Source: a virus (lineage: Duplodnaviria > Heunggongvirae > Uroviricota > Caudoviricetes). From it: a stretch of 30,513 nt of DNA. Position numbers and translations under genes: made by a program. Location of the stretch: IMG/VR virus record IMGVR_UViG_2778261535_000002. One strand, written 5' to 3'. This document shows, piece by piece, positions 7,880-28,348 of this stretch. Numbering within the stretch: position 1 is the first letter of the stretch; each line of letters begins with the position of its first letter. The notes beneath the pieces are model-generated. The model had not been told where the DNA came from, searched no databases, and worked only from the letters and a program-made list of their open reading frames with translations.

Positions 7880-8905
7880 TTACGCCAGTTGTACGGACAC
7901 GAACTCATCAGGGTCAGCCAGCAGCATCAGCGGTGCTGACTGAATCATAGTGAACTCACGCGCCGGATCGCCGGATGTCTTCCAGTTTTTCGGATAACGG
8001 GGAGACGCATTAATACCCTCACTCAATGCATCCGCATCCTGAATACAACCATAGGTGCGCAGACCGCGTGCCTGAGTGTTCCCCAGTACCATCGTGTTGT
8101 CCGGCAGAAAGTTCTTTTTGACGCCGTTTTCCACGTACTGTCCGGAATACACGACGATGGCCACATCGCCATACATCCCCTTATAGGACACCGCTTTACC
8201 CAGGTCTTTTACCGCTGTCTCCAGCTCGGAATGAGAGCCGCGACGGGTATCCAGCTTCTCCCTGACGGCTTTGAAGGAACGGAACAGCGCCCAGCCTTTC
8301 GGATCAAACACGATGATATTCACCACACCGCTGGCGTTCAGCGCGTAGGCTTCGATATCGTCGGTCGGGTCATACGTGGACTTGTCGCGATTGCTCCACT
8401 CCGTGCCGCCGGACTGTGTGATGTTATTCGCCTCACTGCGGCCCATATCCACCTCAACCGGATCGAAGGCTTCACCGGTCATGGTGTATTTGCCCTTAAG
8501 CACAGCAGAAACGGCCTGCATCTCTTCGACCTGAGCAATGGCAAGCTCCTCGTCTCGCATGTTCTGCATGATGATGCGACGGCGGCGGTAAGCCGGGTCC
8601 GCCAGATTCTGTGGATCTTCATCCGGCAGGCGACGCAGGGTCATCTGCGGATTCACCTCATGCTTGGGCTTGACATATCCCGGTGTAAATTCAGAGGTGG
8701 AGCCGCCACGGGAGCGGATAACCTCACCGGAAACAATCGGCGAAACGTACAGCGCCATGTTTACCAGTCCCGGAATTTGTGAGAGATAGACTTTCTCCGT
8801 GGTGAAGGGATAGCTCTCACGGAAAAAGAGACGCAGAAACAGCGGATCAAACTTAAATTTCTGCTCATTTGCCGCCAGCAGCTGGGCGGTTGTGTACATC
8901 GACAT
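7880..8905 (-). CDS. E: major capsid protein E
   Basis: ORF trimmed to the MSMYTTAQLLAANEQKFKFDPLF start (341 aa); recalled lambda E sequence. Confidence 0.9.
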   Translation of the reverse strand: MSMYTTAQLLAANEQKFKFDPLFLRLFFRESYPFTTEKVYLSQIPGLVNMALYVSPIVSGEVIRSRGGSTSEFTPGYVKPKHEVNPQMTLRRLPDEDPQNLADPAYRRRRIIMQNMRDEELAIAQVEEMQAVSAVLKGKYTMTGEAFDPVEVDMGRSEANNITQSGGTEWSNRDKSTYDPTDDIEAYALNASGVVNIIVFDPKGWALFRSFKAVREKLDTRRGSHSELETAVKDLGKAVSYKGMYGDVAIVVYSGQYVENGVKKNFLPDNTMVLGNTQARGLRTYGCIQDADALSEGINASPRYPKNWKTSGDPAREFTMIQSAPLMLLADPDEFVSVQLA

Positions 8906-16795: not shown

Positions 16796-17053
16796 CTACT
16801 TCGCTTTTGCTTCCGCTCGCTTACGCCGGCGCTCTTCTTTCCTCTCGGCTTTTGCCATGTCCATGAATGCCTGCATGATCGAGTTCCGCATCATGTAGCT
16901 AACAAAGTGATGATTGACACAGCCGTTGAGGCGCAGCTGCTCGCCAAACTCATCCACCGAGGCCAATGCTTCCATCATGCCCTTCTCGCCTTTCATGAAC
17001 TCTGAGAAGTCGCGCCCCGCTCTGGAGGCGCATTCAATGACACGATCAATCAT
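16796..17053 (-). CDS. hypothetical protein, Lys/Arg/Glu-rich C-terminus
   Basis: 85 aa ORF whose ATG overlaps the stop of the upstream KilA-N gene (ATGA), implying co-translation. Confidence 0.5.
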   Translation of the reverse strand: MIDRVIECASRAGRDFSEFMKGEKGMMEALASVDEFGEQLRLNGCVNHHFVSYMMRNSIMQAFMDMAKAERKEERRRKRAEAKAK

Positions 17054-17547
17054 CCCGGAAGCCCGGGGATCGTAATCTGCAGCTGGTTAGCCAGGGAGTT
17101 AATCTCAGCGACCAACACTGGCTTCGTATAGCGCCATGCTGCCAGCCCTTGTCCGCAGAAGCTCGCCATGTCTTTCTTCTGGTCAAACTCATGACATTTC
17201 ATGTTGAGCTGCGCACTTAAGCTGTTGCGATGCTGAAGTTCTCCGGTGAAGTAGTCATCGAGGACTTTATAGGCCGCGTACTTGAACCCGGGGTTTAGCC
17301 ATGCTGCATAATCATAAGCAACAAACTTCCCGCCATATGTTCCACCGTGTACACCGCGCTCAGTAAAAACCACAGATTCGTGGTTTTTCTCCAGCTCGGC
17401 TAAGAACTCTTTGGTCTGCTTGTTTCGCAGGTAGTAGTACGGAGATTCAGATTCACTTTTACCACTGGCTTTCCACATATCAGTGAGGCAGATCATGCCA
17501 TCTTCACCGATACGAATTGGTTGATTGAAGAGGGTTAATGATTTCAT
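17050..17547 (-). CDS. KilA-N domain protein
   Basis: 165 aa ORF with a KilA-N-like pattern (GMICLTDMWKASG ... GGTYGGKFVAYDYAAWLNPGFKYAAYKVLDDYF); sits downstream of two intrinsic terminators after Rz. Confidence 0.6.
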   Translation of the reverse strand: MKSLTLFNQPIRIGEDGMICLTDMWKASGKSESESPYYYLRNKQTKEFLAELEKNHESVVFTERGVHGGTYGGKFVAYDYAAWLNPGFKYAAYKVLDDYFTGELQHRNSLSAQLNMKCHEFDQKKDMASFCGQGLAAWRYTKPVLVAEINSLANQLQITIPGLPG

Positions 17548-17750: not shown

Positions 17751-18005
17751 TTATTTCAGGCATTGCGTCCTGATGTACTCCTGCATTTCGATAGTCGCGT
17801 TAGCATCAGCAAGCTCCTTTGTATATCTGGCGTCGAGTTCTGCTACATCATGTTGACGCTTCTGCATGTCAGCGATTGTGGATGTGGCCTTATCGCGCTG
17901 CTCTTTGTAGGTAATGGCGTTATCACGGTAATGATTAACAGCCCATGACAGGCAGACGATGATGCAGATAACCAGAGCGGAGATAATCGCGGTTACTCTG
18001 CTCAT
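17751..18005 (-). CDS. Rz: i-spanin Rz, naturally shortened (84 aa versus 153 aa in lambda)
   Basis: N-terminus [34 protein letters not shown] matches recalled lambda Rz; C-terminus ends ...RTQCLK with the conserved Cys; the central part is missing. Confidence 0.8.
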
Positions 18006-18478
18006 ACCTCAATCTCTCTGACCATTCCGCCAGCTTCTTTGAATTTTGCAATCAGGTTGTCAGCCTTATGCTCGAACTGACCATAACCAGCGCCCGGCAG
18101 TGAAGCCCAGATATTGCTGCAACGGTCGATTGCCTGACGAATATCACCGCGGTCAATCATCGGTAAAGCGCCACGCTCTTTAATCTGCTGCAATGCCACA
18201 GCGTCCTGACTTTTGGGAGAGAAGTCTTTCAGGCCAAGCTGCTTACGATAGGCATCCCACCAACGGGAAAGAAGCTGGTAACGTCCGGCTGCTGTTGATT
18301 TGAGTTTTGGGTTTAGCGTGACAAGTTTGCGAGGGTGATCGGAGTAATCAGTGAATAGCTCTCCGCCTACAATGACGTCATAACCATGATTTCTGGTTTT
18401 CTGACGTCCGTTATCTGTTCCCTCTGACCACGCCAGCATATCGAGGAACGCCTTACGTTGATTATTGATTTCCACCAT
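18002..18478 (-). CDS. R: endolysin R (lytic transglycosylase)
   Basis: 158 aa ORF starting [35 protein letters not shown], recalled lambda R. Confidence 0.9.
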
Positions 18479-18785
18479 CTTCTACTCCGGCTTTTTTAGC
18501 AGCGAAGCGTTTGATAAGCGAACCTATCGAGTCAGTACCGATGTAGCCGATGAACACGCTCGTTATATAAGCGAGATTGCTACTTAGTCCGGCGAAGTCG
18601 AGAAGGTCACGAATGAACCAGGCGATAATGGCGCACATCGTTGCGTCGATTACTGTTTTTGTAAACGCACCGCCATTATATCTGCCACGAAGGTACGCCA
18701 TTGCAAACGCAAGGATTGCCCCGATGCCTTGTTCCTTTGCCGCGAGAATGGCGGCTAACAGGTCATGTTTTTCTGGCATCTTCAT
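18462..18785 (-). CDS. S: holin/antiholin S (S107 start, with the S105 start at Met3)
   Basis: 107 aa ORF starting [22 protein letters not shown], recalled lambda S, including the MKM dual-start motif. Confidence 0.9.
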
Positions 18786-21788: not shown

Positions 21789-21961
21789 TTCCTCGCACGA
21801 TGTCTTAGCCACCGGATATCCCACAGGTGAGCCGTGTAGTTGAAGGTTTTTACGTCAGATTCTTTTGGGATTGGCTTGCGTTTATTTCTGGAGCGTTTCG
21901 TTGGAAGGTATTTGCAGTTTTCACAGATTATGTCGGTGATGCTTCGTCGCTGTCGCCTCAT
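21785..21961 (-). CDS. ninE: NinE
   Basis: ORF 21785..22051 trimmed to [40 protein letters not shown] (58 aa), recalled lambda NinE. Confidence 0.8.
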
Positions 21962-22485
21962 GCCGCCCTCCTGACGCCCCGCCCGATCGCCATCAATGCC
22001 GCTTTGGATACGGTAGTAAACATCCGTCGAGGACTGATGAGCGGTCGCCAAATCAGCAGCATGGAGCCTTTGCTGTTTCCCTTCTTCTCCAGCCCTGTCG
22101 ATGGTTCGATAAAATTAATCCGTCCATCAGTGATAATGCGAACTTCGTCGACACTCTCCAGAGCCTTGCTGAACCATCCGACTGACATATCCTCTGGCAC
22201 AAGCATAACTACCGTCTGTCGCTGTTGTATGCACTGCTCAGCGGCTTTTTCCACCCACGGCCTGATATTGCTGTACGGTGGGTTATTCCAGATTGCACCG
22301 TGGCTTATCCACTCAGAATTTAGCGCGTCGTCGGCCTCAGTTAGCCAGTGAGCGCACAGAGCGTTTTTGTCGCTCGCAGCTGAATCCAGCCAGAATCCAA
22401 ACTCAATATCCAGCGCATCAAAAAGCCAAAGCGGCGTTTGCCAGCAGTCCTTGTCGTGTGCTGGCGTATTTGATTTGATAGTCAT
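21958..22485 (-). CDS. phage DNA N6-adenine methyltransferase (Dam-like)
   Basis: ORF 21958..22512 trimmed to the [22 protein letters not shown] start, which overlaps the NinB stop; catalytic NPPY motif (IWNNPPYSN). Confidence 0.7.
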
Positions 22486-22928
22486 GCAGCCTTCCCTTTT
22501 CGTTGTGACCATTCATACTCTCGCCGGGAGTCATCACTCCACCGCACGTTGCGCTCTGAGCCGAACCAGAACATGATTTCGATAAGCTCAGTCATGCTGG
22601 CCTTTCGCATTTTGCTGGTACGCACGCCAAGCATAACAACGCCACCGTCGATACCAGGCGCACTTCGTTGCTCCAGTTTTTTGGTCTTAAGCCACAGGGC
22701 AGTGAACAGGTCTTTCCAGTCCTCCGGCGCAAGTCTCTCTCCATGCCAAAGCACCTGACGCGATACGTCCTGCAATAACGCCCACATAAGGCGGTTTTGA
22801 GGATTGCTCCGCTTTGGTTCTTTAATGTGGACTTCGTGAGGTGACTTGTCGTCGATCGGAAGTGAGAGTATTGCGTCTATGGCGTTGTTTCTGATTGCTT
22901 CGTTGCGAAGCATGTATATTTGCTTCAT
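22482..22928 (-). CDS. ninB: NinB (Orf-family recombination mediator)
   Basis: 148 aa ORF with a C-terminal ...[21 protein letters not shown], similar in length and pattern to lambda NinB. Confidence 0.75.
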   Translation of the reverse strand: MKQIYMLRNEAIRNNAIDAILSLPIDDKSPHEVHIKEPKRSNPQNRLMWALLQDVSRQVLWHGERLAPEDWKDLFTALWLKTKKLEQRSAPGIDGGVVMLGVRTSKMRKASMTELIEIMFWFGSERNVRWSDDSRREYEWSQRKGKAA

Positions 22929-22935
22929 CGTTACC

Positions 22936-23142
22936 TCAACTCACAAAACGCCACGCCACTTTTGCTACGACAACAGGCATAACACCGATAATCACCCACA
23001 GGAAAATGCTACCGAAAAGCACACCCACCAGGTCTTTACCTTCGCCTACCAACCGGACAAAACTGCTGGCAACAACAATGAACGTCGCCACCATCCACAT
23101 AGCACCGAGAATCCTCAATGCAGAGAAAATTAACTCAGCCAC
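22936..23142 (-). CDS. small hydrophobic protein with two predicted transmembrane helices (GTG start)
   Basis: 68 aa ORF (MAELIFSALRILGAMWMVATFIVVASSFV ... LVGVLFGSIFLWVIIGVMPVVVA); GGGGGAGGG 6 nt upstream of the GTG; lies directly after the tR2-like terminator. Confidence 0.55.
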   Translation of the reverse strand: MAELIFSALRILGAMWMVATFIVVASSFVRLVGEGKDLVGVLFGSIFLWVIIGVMPVVVAKVAWRFVS

Positions 23143-23156
23143 GATTTACCCTCCCC

Positions 23157-23189
23157 CAAATAAAAAGGCCTGCGATTACCAGCAGGCCT
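23157..23189 (-). terminator. intrinsic terminator downstream of ren (tR2-like)
   Basis: - strand AGGCCTGC-TGGTAATC-GCAGGCCT followed by TTTTTATTTG. Confidence 0.75.
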
Positions 23190-23214
23190 GTTATTAGCTC
23201 AGTGATGTAGATGG

Positions 23215-23505
23215 TCATCTTTTAACTCCATATACCGCCAATACCCGTTTCATCGCGGCACTCTGGCGACACTCCTTAAAAATCAGGTTCGTGCTCATCT
23301 TTCCTTCCCGTTCTTCCCTGGTAGCAAACCGGTAATACACCGTTCGCCAGACCTTACCTTCGATAACCAGAAGACCTGCCCGTGCCATTTTAGCCGCGGC
23401 CTGATTTATGCTGGTTACTGTTGCGCCTGTTAGCGCGGCAACGTCCGGCGCACAGAAGCTATTATGCGTCCCCAGGTAATGAATAATTGCCTCTTTGCCC
23501 GTCAT
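23215..23505 (-). CDS. ren: Ren (Rex exclusion resistance protein)
   Basis: 96 aa ORF starting MTGKEAIIHYLGTHNSFCAPDVAALTG, recalled lambda Ren. Confidence 0.85.
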   Translation of the reverse strand: MTGKEAIIHYLGTHNSFCAPDVAALTGATVTSINQAAAKMARAGLLVIEGKVWRTVYYRFATREEREGKMSTNLIFKECRQSAAMKRVLAVYGVKR

Positions 23506-24203
23506 ACACTTGCTCCTTTCAGTCCGAACTTAGCTTTGAGTTCTGCGATCTTCGCCAGAGCCTGTGCACGATTTAGAGGTCTACCGCCCATGACAGGAAG
23601 TTGTTTTACTGGTTCAGGGATCGCCTCACCACGGTTAATTCTCGCAGTCATATGGACAAGCTCATCTGCGGCCTTACGGCGTAATTCCGCATCAGTAAGC
23701 GCATTGGCCCGCATGTTCTGATACAGGTTGGTAACCAGCCAGTAGTGCGCGTTTGATTTCCACGGATAAGACTCCGCATCCGGATACAGGCCTCGCTTCC
23801 GGCAATACTCGTAAACCATATCAACCAGCTCGCTGACGTTTGGCAGTCCGGCGATAACGGATGCTTCTTCCCGGCACCATGCAACAAACTGCCCGGGTGA
23901 TGGCAGAAATGGTCGATTCTGCCGACGGGCTACGCGCATTCCTGCGTTAACCTGTTCCATTGTGGTGATCCCGTTTTCCCGGAAAGCCAGCACCCACTGG
24001 CGGCGGATTTCGTTCAGTTCGTTCTGGTCCCGGTTAGCCAGGCTCGCCGGGAAAGTTGCCAGTAACTGGCTGAACACACCATTGATGATCTGCGCTACCT
24101 GCTGTACCTGCGGCTTTTCGTCGTACTGTTCCGGCATGTTGTTGGCGATCCTACGCATCTGCTCACGGTCAAAGTTAACCATCTGTGCGGCGATGTTTTT
24201 CAT
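23502..24203 (-). CDS. P: replication protein P (DnaB helicase loader)
   Basis: 233 aa ORF, same length and position as lambda P. Confidence 0.9.
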   Translation of the reverse strand: MKNIAAQMVNFDREQMRRIANNMPEQYDEKPQVQQVAQIINGVFSQLLATFPASLANRDQNELNEIRRQWVLAFRENGITTMEQVNAGMRVARRQNRPFLPSPGQFVAWCREEASVIAGLPNVSELVDMVYEYCRKRGLYPDAESYPWKSNAHYWLVTNLYQNMRANALTDAELRRKAADELVHMTARINRGEAIPEPVKQLPVMGGRPLNRAQALAKIAELKAKFGLKGASV

Positions 24204-26685: not shown

Positions 26686-27543
26686 ATGAAGAAAGCAGCA
26701 ATTTTAATTGATGCGGGTTTTTTCATGCAGCGTGTTCATGCTACGCATCGTAAACACTTCGCCGAGCATGAACTGACTGCGCAATGCATAATGAAAGTAA
26801 TATGGTCAATGGTTCTTTCCCATCTTAATGGAAAACGTCAATCACAAGAACGTAGGGAACCGCTTGAGCTTTATAGAATTTACTTCTATGACTGTCCACC
26901 ACTCGACATTCAAACACGCCTTCCACTTCCTGAGCCTGGCAATAAGACGCCTGGTCGCAAGAATTTCAAACTCGAAAAATCATATATTCTGAGAACGGAG
27001 CTGCATGAAGAGTTAAGAAAAACTCGAAAAACAGCCTTAAGATTAGGGAATCTTGTTGATAATAAGCGATGGCAACTAACTACATTCTCCCTTGATGCTC
27101 TGATGAAAGGAACGAAAAAATGGGATGAACTGACAAATGATGATTTTTACTATGACATCAAACAAAAACAAGTTGATATCAAGCTAGGGATGGATATCAC
27201 GACTTTAGCTTATGAAAAACTTGTTGATGTAATTGTCCTTGTTGCTGGGGACTCAGACTTTGTGCCTGCCGCCAAACACGCCAGAATTAAAGGTATTGAT
27301 TTTATTCTTGATCCACTAAGACAGAATGTTACCCCATCACTGTCAGAGCACATTGATGGAGTTCAGTCATACAGCTTGATATCAGGACTTGCCGATGCTT
27401 TACATGTTGAGCCAGACCCGGCACCTGACTGGTGGGAAGATCGAAAAAAAGGCAAGCCTAGAGGAAAAAACAATAGCGGTAAACGCAGGTATGGAAACAC
27501 TCAAGCTGAGTCTGCAAAGAAACATCAAAGAAATAAACGATAA
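26686..27543 (+). CDS. NYN/PIN-like domain protein (predicted nuclease) occupying the rexA-rexB slot
   Basis: 285 aa ORF; N-terminal AAILIDAGFF and later VDVIVLVAGDSDFVPAAKHARIKGIDFIL fit the NYN/LabA-like pattern with conserved acidic residues; Lys/Arg-rich C-terminal tail; unlike recalled RexA or RexB. Confidence 0.6.
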   Translation: MKKAAILIDAGFFMQRVHATHRKHFAEHELTAQCIMKVIWSMVLSHLNGKRQSQERREPLELYRIYFYDCPPLDIQTRLPLPEPGNKTPGRKNFKLEKSYILRTELHEELRKTRKTALRLGNLVDNKRWQLTTFSLDALMKGTKKWDELTNDDFYYDIKQKQVDIKLGMDITTLAYEKLVDVIVLVAGDSDFVPAAKHARIKGIDFILDPLRQNVTPSLSEHIDGVQSYSLISGLADALHVEPDPAPDWWEDRKKGKPRGKNNSGKRRYGNTQAESAKKHQRNKR

Positions 27544-27866: not shown

Positions 27867-28024
27867 AGCATTCAAAGCAGAAGGCTTTGGGGTGTGTGAT
27901 ACGAAACGAAACATTGGCCGGAAGTGCGAATCCGGATTAGCTGCAAATGAGCCAATCGTGGGGTGTTTTCGTTCAGGACTACGACTCCCACACACCACCA
28001 AAGCTAACTGACAAGAGAATCCAG

Positions 28025-28348
28025 ATGGATGCACAAACACGCCGCCGCGAACGTCGCGCAGAGAAACAGGCTCAATGGAAAGCAGCAAATCCCCTGTTGG
28101 TTGGGGTAAGCGCAAAACCAGTTAACCGCCCTATTCTCTCGCTGAATCGCAAACCGAAATCACGAGTAGAAAGCGCACTAAATCCGATAGACCTTACAGT
28201 GCTGGCTGAATACCACAAACAGATTGAAAGCAACCTGCAACGTATTGAGCGCAAGAATCAGCGCACATGGTACAGCAAGCCTGGCGAACGCGGCATAACA
28301 TGCAGTGGACGCCAGAAAATTAAGGGAAAATCGATTCCTCTTATCTAG
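28025..28348 (+). CDS. N: antiterminator N
   Basis: ORF 27947..28348 trimmed to the MDAQTRRRERRAEKQAQWKAANPLLVGVSAKPVNRPIL start (107 aa), recalled lambda N with its Arg-rich motif. Confidence 0.9.
   Translation: MDAQTRRRERRAEKQAQWKAANPLLVGVSAKPVNRPILSLNRKPKSRVESALNPIDLTVLAEYHKQIESNLQRIERKNQRTWYSKPGERGITCSGRQKIKGKSIPLI

Follow-up and report, generated by a model that had tools for sequence, protein, structure and literature searches.

Organization of the locus

On the minus strand of the window (the whole 30,513 nt stretch of phage DNA that was analysed), the gene order is O, P, ren, ninA/tR2, a 68-codon ORF termed ORF68 here, ninB, dam and, further on, ninG, a phosphatase gene and Q. Pfam searches recognized O, P, NinB, a Dam methyltransferase, NinG, a NinI-like phosphatase, Q and the S holin on that strand, and CI and a lambda-type N antiterminator (27947–28348, plus strand; N36, PF11438, E 2.6e-26) on the other. 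ORF68 falls in the interval from the replication genes to Q, shares their strand and is tightly packed with its neighbours, and is in that sense a nin-region gene.

In the ORF list, ORF68 occupies positions 22936–23142 of the minus strand, from a GTG start at 23142 to a TGA stop at 22938–22936. Upstream of it the DNA reads GGGGGAGGG (23149–23157, minus strand), a Shine–Dalgarno sequence whose GGAGG core is positioned 7 nt ahead of the GTG, a spacing favourable for initiation. This in turn is preceded by a tR2-type intrinsic terminator (23158–23189, minus strand), identified by a terminator scan, RNA folding and identity with lambda tR2. The stem (23189–23166) has 8 pairs, 6 of them G–C, and a loop of 8, and is followed by TTTTATTT, with the T-run at 23165–23158. 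The hairpin is labelled 'terminator tR2' in the annotations of HK620 and Lahn3. The succession of terminator, strong Shine–Dalgarno sequence and GTG-initiated 68-codon ORF, which was the substance of the original prediction, was therefore found in place.

One detail of that prediction was in error: the stop codon of ORF68 had been placed 5 nt before the ninB start, and the distance to the ninB ATG (22928) is 7 nt (GGTAACG). The GAGG ribosome-binding site of ninB overlaps the ORF68 stop. The ninB gene (22482–22928, minus strand; NinB, PF05772, E 1.5e-48) is a non-lambda allele. Its 3′-end is overlapped by 31 nt by a gene for a Dam-type N6-adenine methyltransferase (21958–22512, minus strand; PF05869, E 5.8e-64), which stands in place of lambda ninC.

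The last gene before tR2 is a ren-like gene, an ORF of 96 aa in the ORF list (23215–23505, minus strand), whose counterpart in mEpX1 is annotated 'Ren-like exclusion protein'. Translation of the region that follows revealed the ninA mini-ORF, of 27 aa (MTIYITELITGLLVIAGLFIWGRVNRG; 23135–23218, minus strand). Its ATG overlaps the ren stop codon (ATGA), its frame crosses tR2 and the Shine–Dalgarno sequence, and its TGA is located 5 nt beyond the ORF68 GTG, the first 8 nt of ORF68 being shared by ninA. The equivalent mini-ORF carries the ninA annotation in HK620 and SPN9CC. The tR2 terminator hairpin would itself encode the putative hydrophobic ninA peptide. Since ninA is listed under the HK620, HK630 and SPN9CC matches, the identification of ORF68 as NinA was considered, and was rejected because ninA is the separate 27-codon ORF across tR2.

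The G+C content of ORF68 is 0.49, as compared with 0.51–0.54 for its neighbours, and base composition thus provides no mark of foreign origin. An Rfam search yielded no family above threshold. A Trp_leader match was noted below it (23160–23249, minus strand; 20.1 bits against a gathering score of 41, E 0.2), spanning the 3′-end of ren and tR2, and most likely reflects a generic resemblance among terminator hairpins. A preprint on the lambda sRNA PreS was considered for its bearing on tR2, and was set aside because it concerns the late operon.

Comparison with lambda

The window is 97% identical to lambda across 80% of positions 8000–30513. Through the 3′-end of ren, the mini-ORF, the tR2 hairpin, the T-run and the sequence GGGGGAG there is one mismatch between the two (alignment A2); the 3′-end of the ren-like gene matches lambda ren exactly within the aligned stretch, and tR2 is likewise identical in sequence. 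Beyond the common GGGGGAG, lambda continues into ninB, while the window, HK620 and the Salmonella phage SPN9CC continue into the 68-codon ORF. The same ribosome-binding-site element therefore precedes ninB in lambda. The lambda mini-ORF has 26 codons, and its stop codon overlaps the ninB ATG (ATGA).

It had been stated that the lambda ren–ninB gap contains essentially the tR2 terminator alone. The end of lambda ren at 40570 and the start of ninB at 40644 are separated by 73 nt, which do contain tR2; the interval between ren and ORF68, however, holds ninA as well, and not just a terminator. The two nin regions are thus alike in the 3′-end of ren, the ninA mini-ORF, the tR2 hairpin and the ribosome-binding site, and in their tight packing with overlapping stop and start signals. 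They differ in that the lambda ninA stop lies on the ninB ATG, whereas here a 207 nt gene for a predicted membrane protein intervenes and a different ninB allele follows. Nin regions have been described as a 'chain of interlinked genes' (ren-ninA-ninB...), linked by ATGA and tightly packed (PMC8022706). With its identical flanks, lambda constitutes a natural ORF68 knockout, which renders the function of the gene readily testable.

Evidence that ORF68 is a coding sequence

Related loci were collected from IMG/VR and from GTDB genomes; the 84 loci comprised 39 DNA alleles and 29 protein alleles. ORF68 was intact, with a GTG start, in every one of the 84, and the Shine–Dalgarno sequence was retained as GGGGGAG(A/G)G at every locus with enough upstream sequence. 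Across the 39 DNA alleles pN/pS was 0.33, indicative of only moderate constraint. The same ratio was obtained for the antisense frame, as follows from a shadow frame sharing third codon positions, and the ratio alone cannot discriminate between the two. The nature of the replacements differs: their mean BLOSUM62 score was +0.12 (conservative) in the sense frame versus -0.77 (non-conservative) in the antisense frame.

Two long antisense ORFs lie over ORF68, at 22895–23197 (100 aa) and 22846–23133 (95 aa) of the plus strand. The first of these, open for 100 codons and with the same pN/pS, is what might be cited in favour of ORF68 being a chance ORF, or the non-coding shadow of an antisense gene. 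That frame, however, is broken by stop codons in five of the 39 close alleles, in HK620, in SPN9CC and in most of the distant loci, and it crosses both the terminator and the ninB start and lacks a ribosome-binding site. The sense frame, on the other hand, is whole in every allele and in every distant homologue, and its product gives a coherent hairpin model. A non-coding ORF68 can be given almost no credence, and the antisense ORF at 22895–23197 is, judged by these alignments, a shadow ORF. Together with the distribution described in the following sections, the sequence comparisons establish ORF68 as a genuine, conserved, modular and dispensable accessory gene of lambda-like phages.

Homologues and distribution of ORF68

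ORF68 is not novel: it has already been catalogued as PHROG 1165, a family whose function is uncharacterized. Residues 1–68 matched the phrog_1165 HMM over profile positions 1–68 of 68 (E 6.5e-36, 123.9 bits), and the sole PHROG matches were to two families of unknown function. Members of phrog_1165 include HK022_58, mEpX1 gp49, orf70 of Stx2-converting phage 86 and SPN9CC_0027; they share the place after tR2 and before the nin genes, and no difference was apparent that would set ORF68, itself a member, apart from them. An identical protein sequence is present on 802 contigs in the public databases, in which the names are all 'hypothetical protein' or 'phage protein' (PGAP: 'hypothetical protein').

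By tblastn, the ORF68 protein was found in 107 phage records. Carriers include phiv205-1 (100% identity over the aligned residues 3–68), HK75, HK629/630, mEpX1, HK022 and Kapi1, and 48 of the 107 are Stx2a-converting phages. The gene was also detected in 153 IMG/VR stretches and, in every case on the chromosome, in 451 of 5,426 complete Escherichia coli genomes (~8%). It is a common gene, therefore, shared by many Stx2a-converting phages, HK022 and the P22-like phages of Salmonella, and yet it is nameless.

The homology search that had been proposed among lambdoid nin regions was productive, in that homologues of equal length were recovered from lambda-like phages. That of HK620 has 68 aa and 60% identity, that of H-19B has the identical length and 54% identity, and those of P22-like Salmonella phages (SPN9CC) have 68 aa, 41% identity and an ATG start. 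The homologues in HK620 (AF335538; locus L086, 1998–2204) and H-19B (AF034975; 8091–8291) are missing from the original annotations; in both GenBank records, the 200 nt from ninA/tR2 to the following gene stand as an 'empty' gap.

Only 27 matches emerged when 1.84 billion representative proteins were searched with a profile. The more distant relatives, of 60–66 aa and approximately 30–40% identity, derive from prophages of Pantoea, Serratia and Izhakiella and from metagenomes, and reciprocal tblastn searches from them led back to the E. coli and Salmonella family. Four distant contexts were retrieved. All are phage early regions in which the gene abuts or overlaps the preceding ORF; in one it comes after CI/Cro/CII/O/DnaC-type genes and ahead of NinX and NinF. 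PF26207 (Phage_phiTE_015) was found near three of the four distant homologues and was considered as a conserved partner gene; the 'MDESRKQFEE...' gene commonly found downstream in E. coli loci has no Pfam match, and no linkage was established. Some database entries are shorter (40–65 aa), and these could be pseudogenes or products of contig ends.

Scans of ORF68 against Pfam, NCBIfam and PADLOC gave no match, and no PDB sequence was retrieved by a profile at E ≤ 1. When the AlphaFold2 model was compared with BFVD and the PDB using Foldseek, no match reached E ≤ 0.001, and the top-scoring ones, with E values of 2–10, were to generic helical hairpins (ATP-synthase c subunits, for example). Literature searches on the nin region, ninA/ninB, tR2, lambdoid small membrane proteins and the peptide motifs yielded no paper on the ORF68 protein.

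Modular structure and mosaicism

In every locus with enough upstream sequence, ORF68 is preceded by the same linker, consisting of tR2 and the ribosome-binding site. Different loci have different genes ahead of this linker, which encode Ren, either of two DnaB-type helicases, a primase-helicase, an HNH-like protein or a small protein of unknown type. What follows ORF68 differs as well, being either of two ninB alleles or a member of the unrelated 'MDESRKQFEE...' family, in which a zinc-ribbon-like extension may be present or absent, and the junctions coincide with the ends of ORF68. Chimeric alleles exist (P0147), and over the last 63 nt the HK620 type is the same as that of the window.

The tR2 linker was found in 406 phage records, including those of lambda, 434, 933W, VT1-Sakai, P22, L, ES18 and BTP1, and only 107 of these carry ORF68. 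Lambda, 434, 933W, P22 and further viable phages possess the same linker but no ORF68, and the gene is therefore dispensable. By alignment, ORF68 is one of several alternative first genes behind a universal tR2 linker, and it represents ordinary nin-region mosaicism. The original prediction had spoken of a gene inserted between the terminator and ninB. That term has to be given up, as tR2, the ribosome-binding site and ORF68 form a widespread alternative module (107 of the 406 records) and the direction of the change is not polarisable: lambda may have lost ORF68 or, equally, the others may have gained it. Absence of the ORF from close relatives with conserved flanks, which had been named as a result adverse to the gene, is literally what is observed in lambda; the pattern is one of clean presence or absence of a module, and not of decay, so that it provides no argument against ORF68 as a gene.

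In approximately half of the related loci, ORF68 is followed, in place of ninB, by members of a highly mosaic family of small acidic proteins that start with MDESRKQFEE and end with IRAAGIKVKE (e.g. locus L042, 255–617, and locus L083, 1276–1695). Some of these have an N-terminal Cys-rich extension, and the family had no Pfam match.

Predicted architecture and topology of the protein

The description of the product as two hydrophobic helices was confirmed. Hydropathy analysis located hydrophobic stretches at approximately residues 11–31 and 38–60, with a GRAVY of 1.56, and AlphaFold2, run with a 17-sequence alignment, modelled helices at residues 2–32 and 37–66 (mean pLDDT 89.8). Neither hydrophobic segment contains a charged residue, and the hydrophobicity of helix 1 is somewhat below that of helix 2. 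The product is accordingly predicted to be a 68-residue inner-membrane α-helical hairpin with no soluble domain.

In 15 family members, the tails contain 39 K/R and 4 D/E residues, as compared with 20 and 22, respectively, in the loop. From this excess of positive charge in the tails, the positive-inside rule predicts an N-in/C-in topology, in which both termini would be cytoplasmic and a short turn (V-G/N-x-G-K-D) periplasmic. The C-terminal tail, KVAWRFVS, comprises 8 residues, 2 of them K/R.

In the wider family, conservation is seen at a K/R immediately preceding helix 1, at W16, W49, G53, P56, K61 and W64, and in a V-N/G-x-G-x-D-P turn; W16, W49 and W64 are conserved interfacial residues. 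The most conserved segment, G-x-x-P-V-x-V-A-K-x-A-W-R-F, is situated at the predicted cytoplasmic-interface end of helix 2. A cleavable signal peptide was also considered, with a possible V-A-S/S site after residue 27. Conservation of the site does not extend to the HK620 and Salmonella subfamilies, whereas helix 1 residues are conserved, and to judge from this pattern it is more likely that the first helix is uncleaved.

Expression

A simple consensus scan of positions 22400–23700, which could miss a weak or non-sigma-70 promoter, detected no sigma-70-like promoter on either strand. In lambda, N-modified polymerase from pR reads through tR2. Given the lack of a detected promoter and the place of ORF68 directly after tR2, we infer that the gene is expressed by read-through of that terminator. 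It would be silent in the repressed prophage and would be switched on as a delayed-early gene when N-modified RNA polymerase passes tR2, with translation proceeding from its own strong ribosome-binding site and GTG. Delayed-early timing is thus probable, the simple scan being compatible with expression in the lysogen also. It had been proposed that ORF68 is expressed only on N-antiterminated read-through or from an unrecognised promoter. The promoter scan and the presence of an N gene in the window are in keeping with the first of these, which would be the natural route.

The ninA stop codon, 5 nt inside ORF68, could add a coupling of termination and reinitiation, which would fit the view of nin regions as a 'chain of interlinked genes' (PMC8022706). 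ORF68 does not have the arrangement of a moron: its terminator lies upstream and not downstream, no promoter was found for it, and the next gene begins 7 nt after its stop codon.

Resemblance to known small membrane proteins

T4 Imm and HK97 gp15 are tiny, accessory inner-membrane exclusion proteins with one or two transmembrane helices and no soluble domain. Imm is made early in lytic infection, and gp15 is the product of a prophage-expressed moron with its own promoter. The ORF68 product is likewise tiny, accessory and, by prediction, wholly membrane-embedded, and like Imm it would be made early, but it has no detectable sequence or profile similarity to either protein and, in contrast to gp15, no detectable promoter of its own. 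The class II pinholin S68 of phage 21 has approximately 68 residues and two transmembrane helices, as ORF68 is predicted to have; ORF68 differs from class II holins and pinholins in its location in the early and not the late operon, its distance from the endolysin gene and its very short, weakly charged tail. AcrZ, MgtS and MgrB are chromosomally encoded, mostly single-helix proteins that are almost wholly transmembrane and bind larger membrane proteins. The conservation of interface residues in ORF68 would be consistent with binding of that kind, although the resemblance is one of functional analogy only, as ORF68 has no homology to these proteins, is phage-borne and has two predicted helices.

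Possible function of the ORF68 product

The observation that prompted this study is confirmed by the data presented above, and its interpretation is supported only in part. On the whole, it is probable that ORF68 is an accessory gene of the early-right (pR) operon, expressed in the delayed-early phase, and that its product is an inner-membrane hairpin, which may act within the membrane. The latter point we infer from the lack of a soluble domain and from the concentration of conservation in the membrane-interface motif. The protein would bind a host or phage membrane component inside the membrane and would not form a lytic pore. This mode of action is proposed weakly; the all-membrane architecture, the interface conservation and the absence of charges from the hydrophobic segments fit a binder better than a pore. 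Position, architecture and the pattern of conservation allow the tentative suggestion that the product serves to protect the infected cell during lytic growth, either by blocking the entry of further phage DNA or by neutralising a membrane-acting host factor. It is a more speculative idea still, and one that we regard as rather improbable, that ORF68 and its relatives in temperate phages of the Enterobacterales represent an unrecognised class of delayed-early membrane effectors, each binding a specific host inner-membrane protein via the G-x-x-P-V-x-V-A-K-x-A-W-R-F motif, with the effect of safeguarding or optimising lytic development; the targets might be a DNA-entry channel, a protease or transport complex, or an abortive-infection or defence effector that acts at the membrane. 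If modulation of a host membrane component in lytic growth is indeed the role of ORF68, the lambda early programme, well studied as it is, would gain a small-protein effector.

Several more specific functions were weighed against this reading. A superinfection-exclusion factor that, like T4 Imm, blocks the entry of secondary phage DNA during lytic growth would agree with the small, two-helix, predicted inner-membrane architecture, with the early-operon position and with an accessory, mosaic distribution of the kind typical of exclusion and competition genes. It is nevertheless an unlikely assignment, as there is no similarity to an annotated exclusion family in PHROGs, Pfam, NCBIfam or PADLOC, and expression in the lysogen is the norm for prophage exclusion genes, whereas ORF68 is placed downstream of pR and tR2 and no promoter was detected for it. 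The holin-like activity that had been envisaged, whether as a holin, a pinholin or an antiholin-like lysis-timing protein, receives some encouragement from the size and the two predicted transmembrane segments, which resemble those of class II holins and pinholins (68–71 aa), and from the somewhat lower hydrophobicity of helix 1. The genomic setting is wrong for it, however. ORF68 is in the early operon, approximately 4 kb upstream of the window's own S holin (PF05106, 18462–18785) and R endolysin genes, which together occupy 18002–18785 according to Pfam, and an endolysin gene was its neighbour in none of the 84 loci. Nor did it match a holin HMM in Pfam or PHROGs, and its tail, of 8 residues with 2 positive charges, would be atypical of holins, in which it is usually long and charged. 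A hole-former made early would abort the infection, and a role in lysis appears very improbable.

A toxin-like function, also raised at the outset, would make ORF68 a type I or abortive-infection membrane toxin that is held in check by antisense RNA or by low expression. Although it encodes a small and very hydrophobic peptide in a prophage, neither a promoter of its own nor an antisense one was detected for ORF68 (no promoter-like site on either strand in 22400–23700), it lies within a polycistronic chain of overlapping or adjacent, coupled ORFs, and no Rfam or PADLOC matches were obtained. Moreover, its 68 aa and two predicted helices contrast with the single helix, usually of under 60 aa, of such toxins, and what is conserved is a specific interface motif and not generic hydrophobicity; this function, too, has very little to recommend it. 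There is, finally, the possibility that the peptide has no function and that the frame is a translated spacer, holding ribosomes between tR2 and ninB for the sake of coupling or anti-polarity. The nin genes do form a chain of coupled ORFs (PMC8022706), and a pN/pS of 0.33 is not very low. Lambda, however, makes ninB directly from the same ribosome-binding site with no ORF68, and the length, the hydropathy, W16, G53, P56, K61, W64 and the G-x-D-P turn are conserved down to approximately 30% identity, even in contexts that contain no tR2 or ninB. A mere spacer is thus highly implausible, and the probable reading remains that of a delayed-early membrane hairpin.

Other features of the window

Two further regions of the window deserve mention. 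The R endolysin gene is followed by an Rz-like ORF of only 84 aa (17751–18005, minus strand), and that in turn by a gene with a KilA-N/ORF11CD3 domain (17050–17547, minus strand). Lambda Rz has 153 aa, and the Rz-like ORF presumably diverges from it after approximately residue 70. The spanin may therefore be truncated or replaced in this prophage. Directly downstream of cI, at what we take to be roughly the position of lambda rexA/rexB, is a gene for a 285 aa protein with an NYN domain, a predicted RNase (26686–27543, plus strand). In this part of the immunity region it is a candidate for a defence or moron gene expressed from the prophage.
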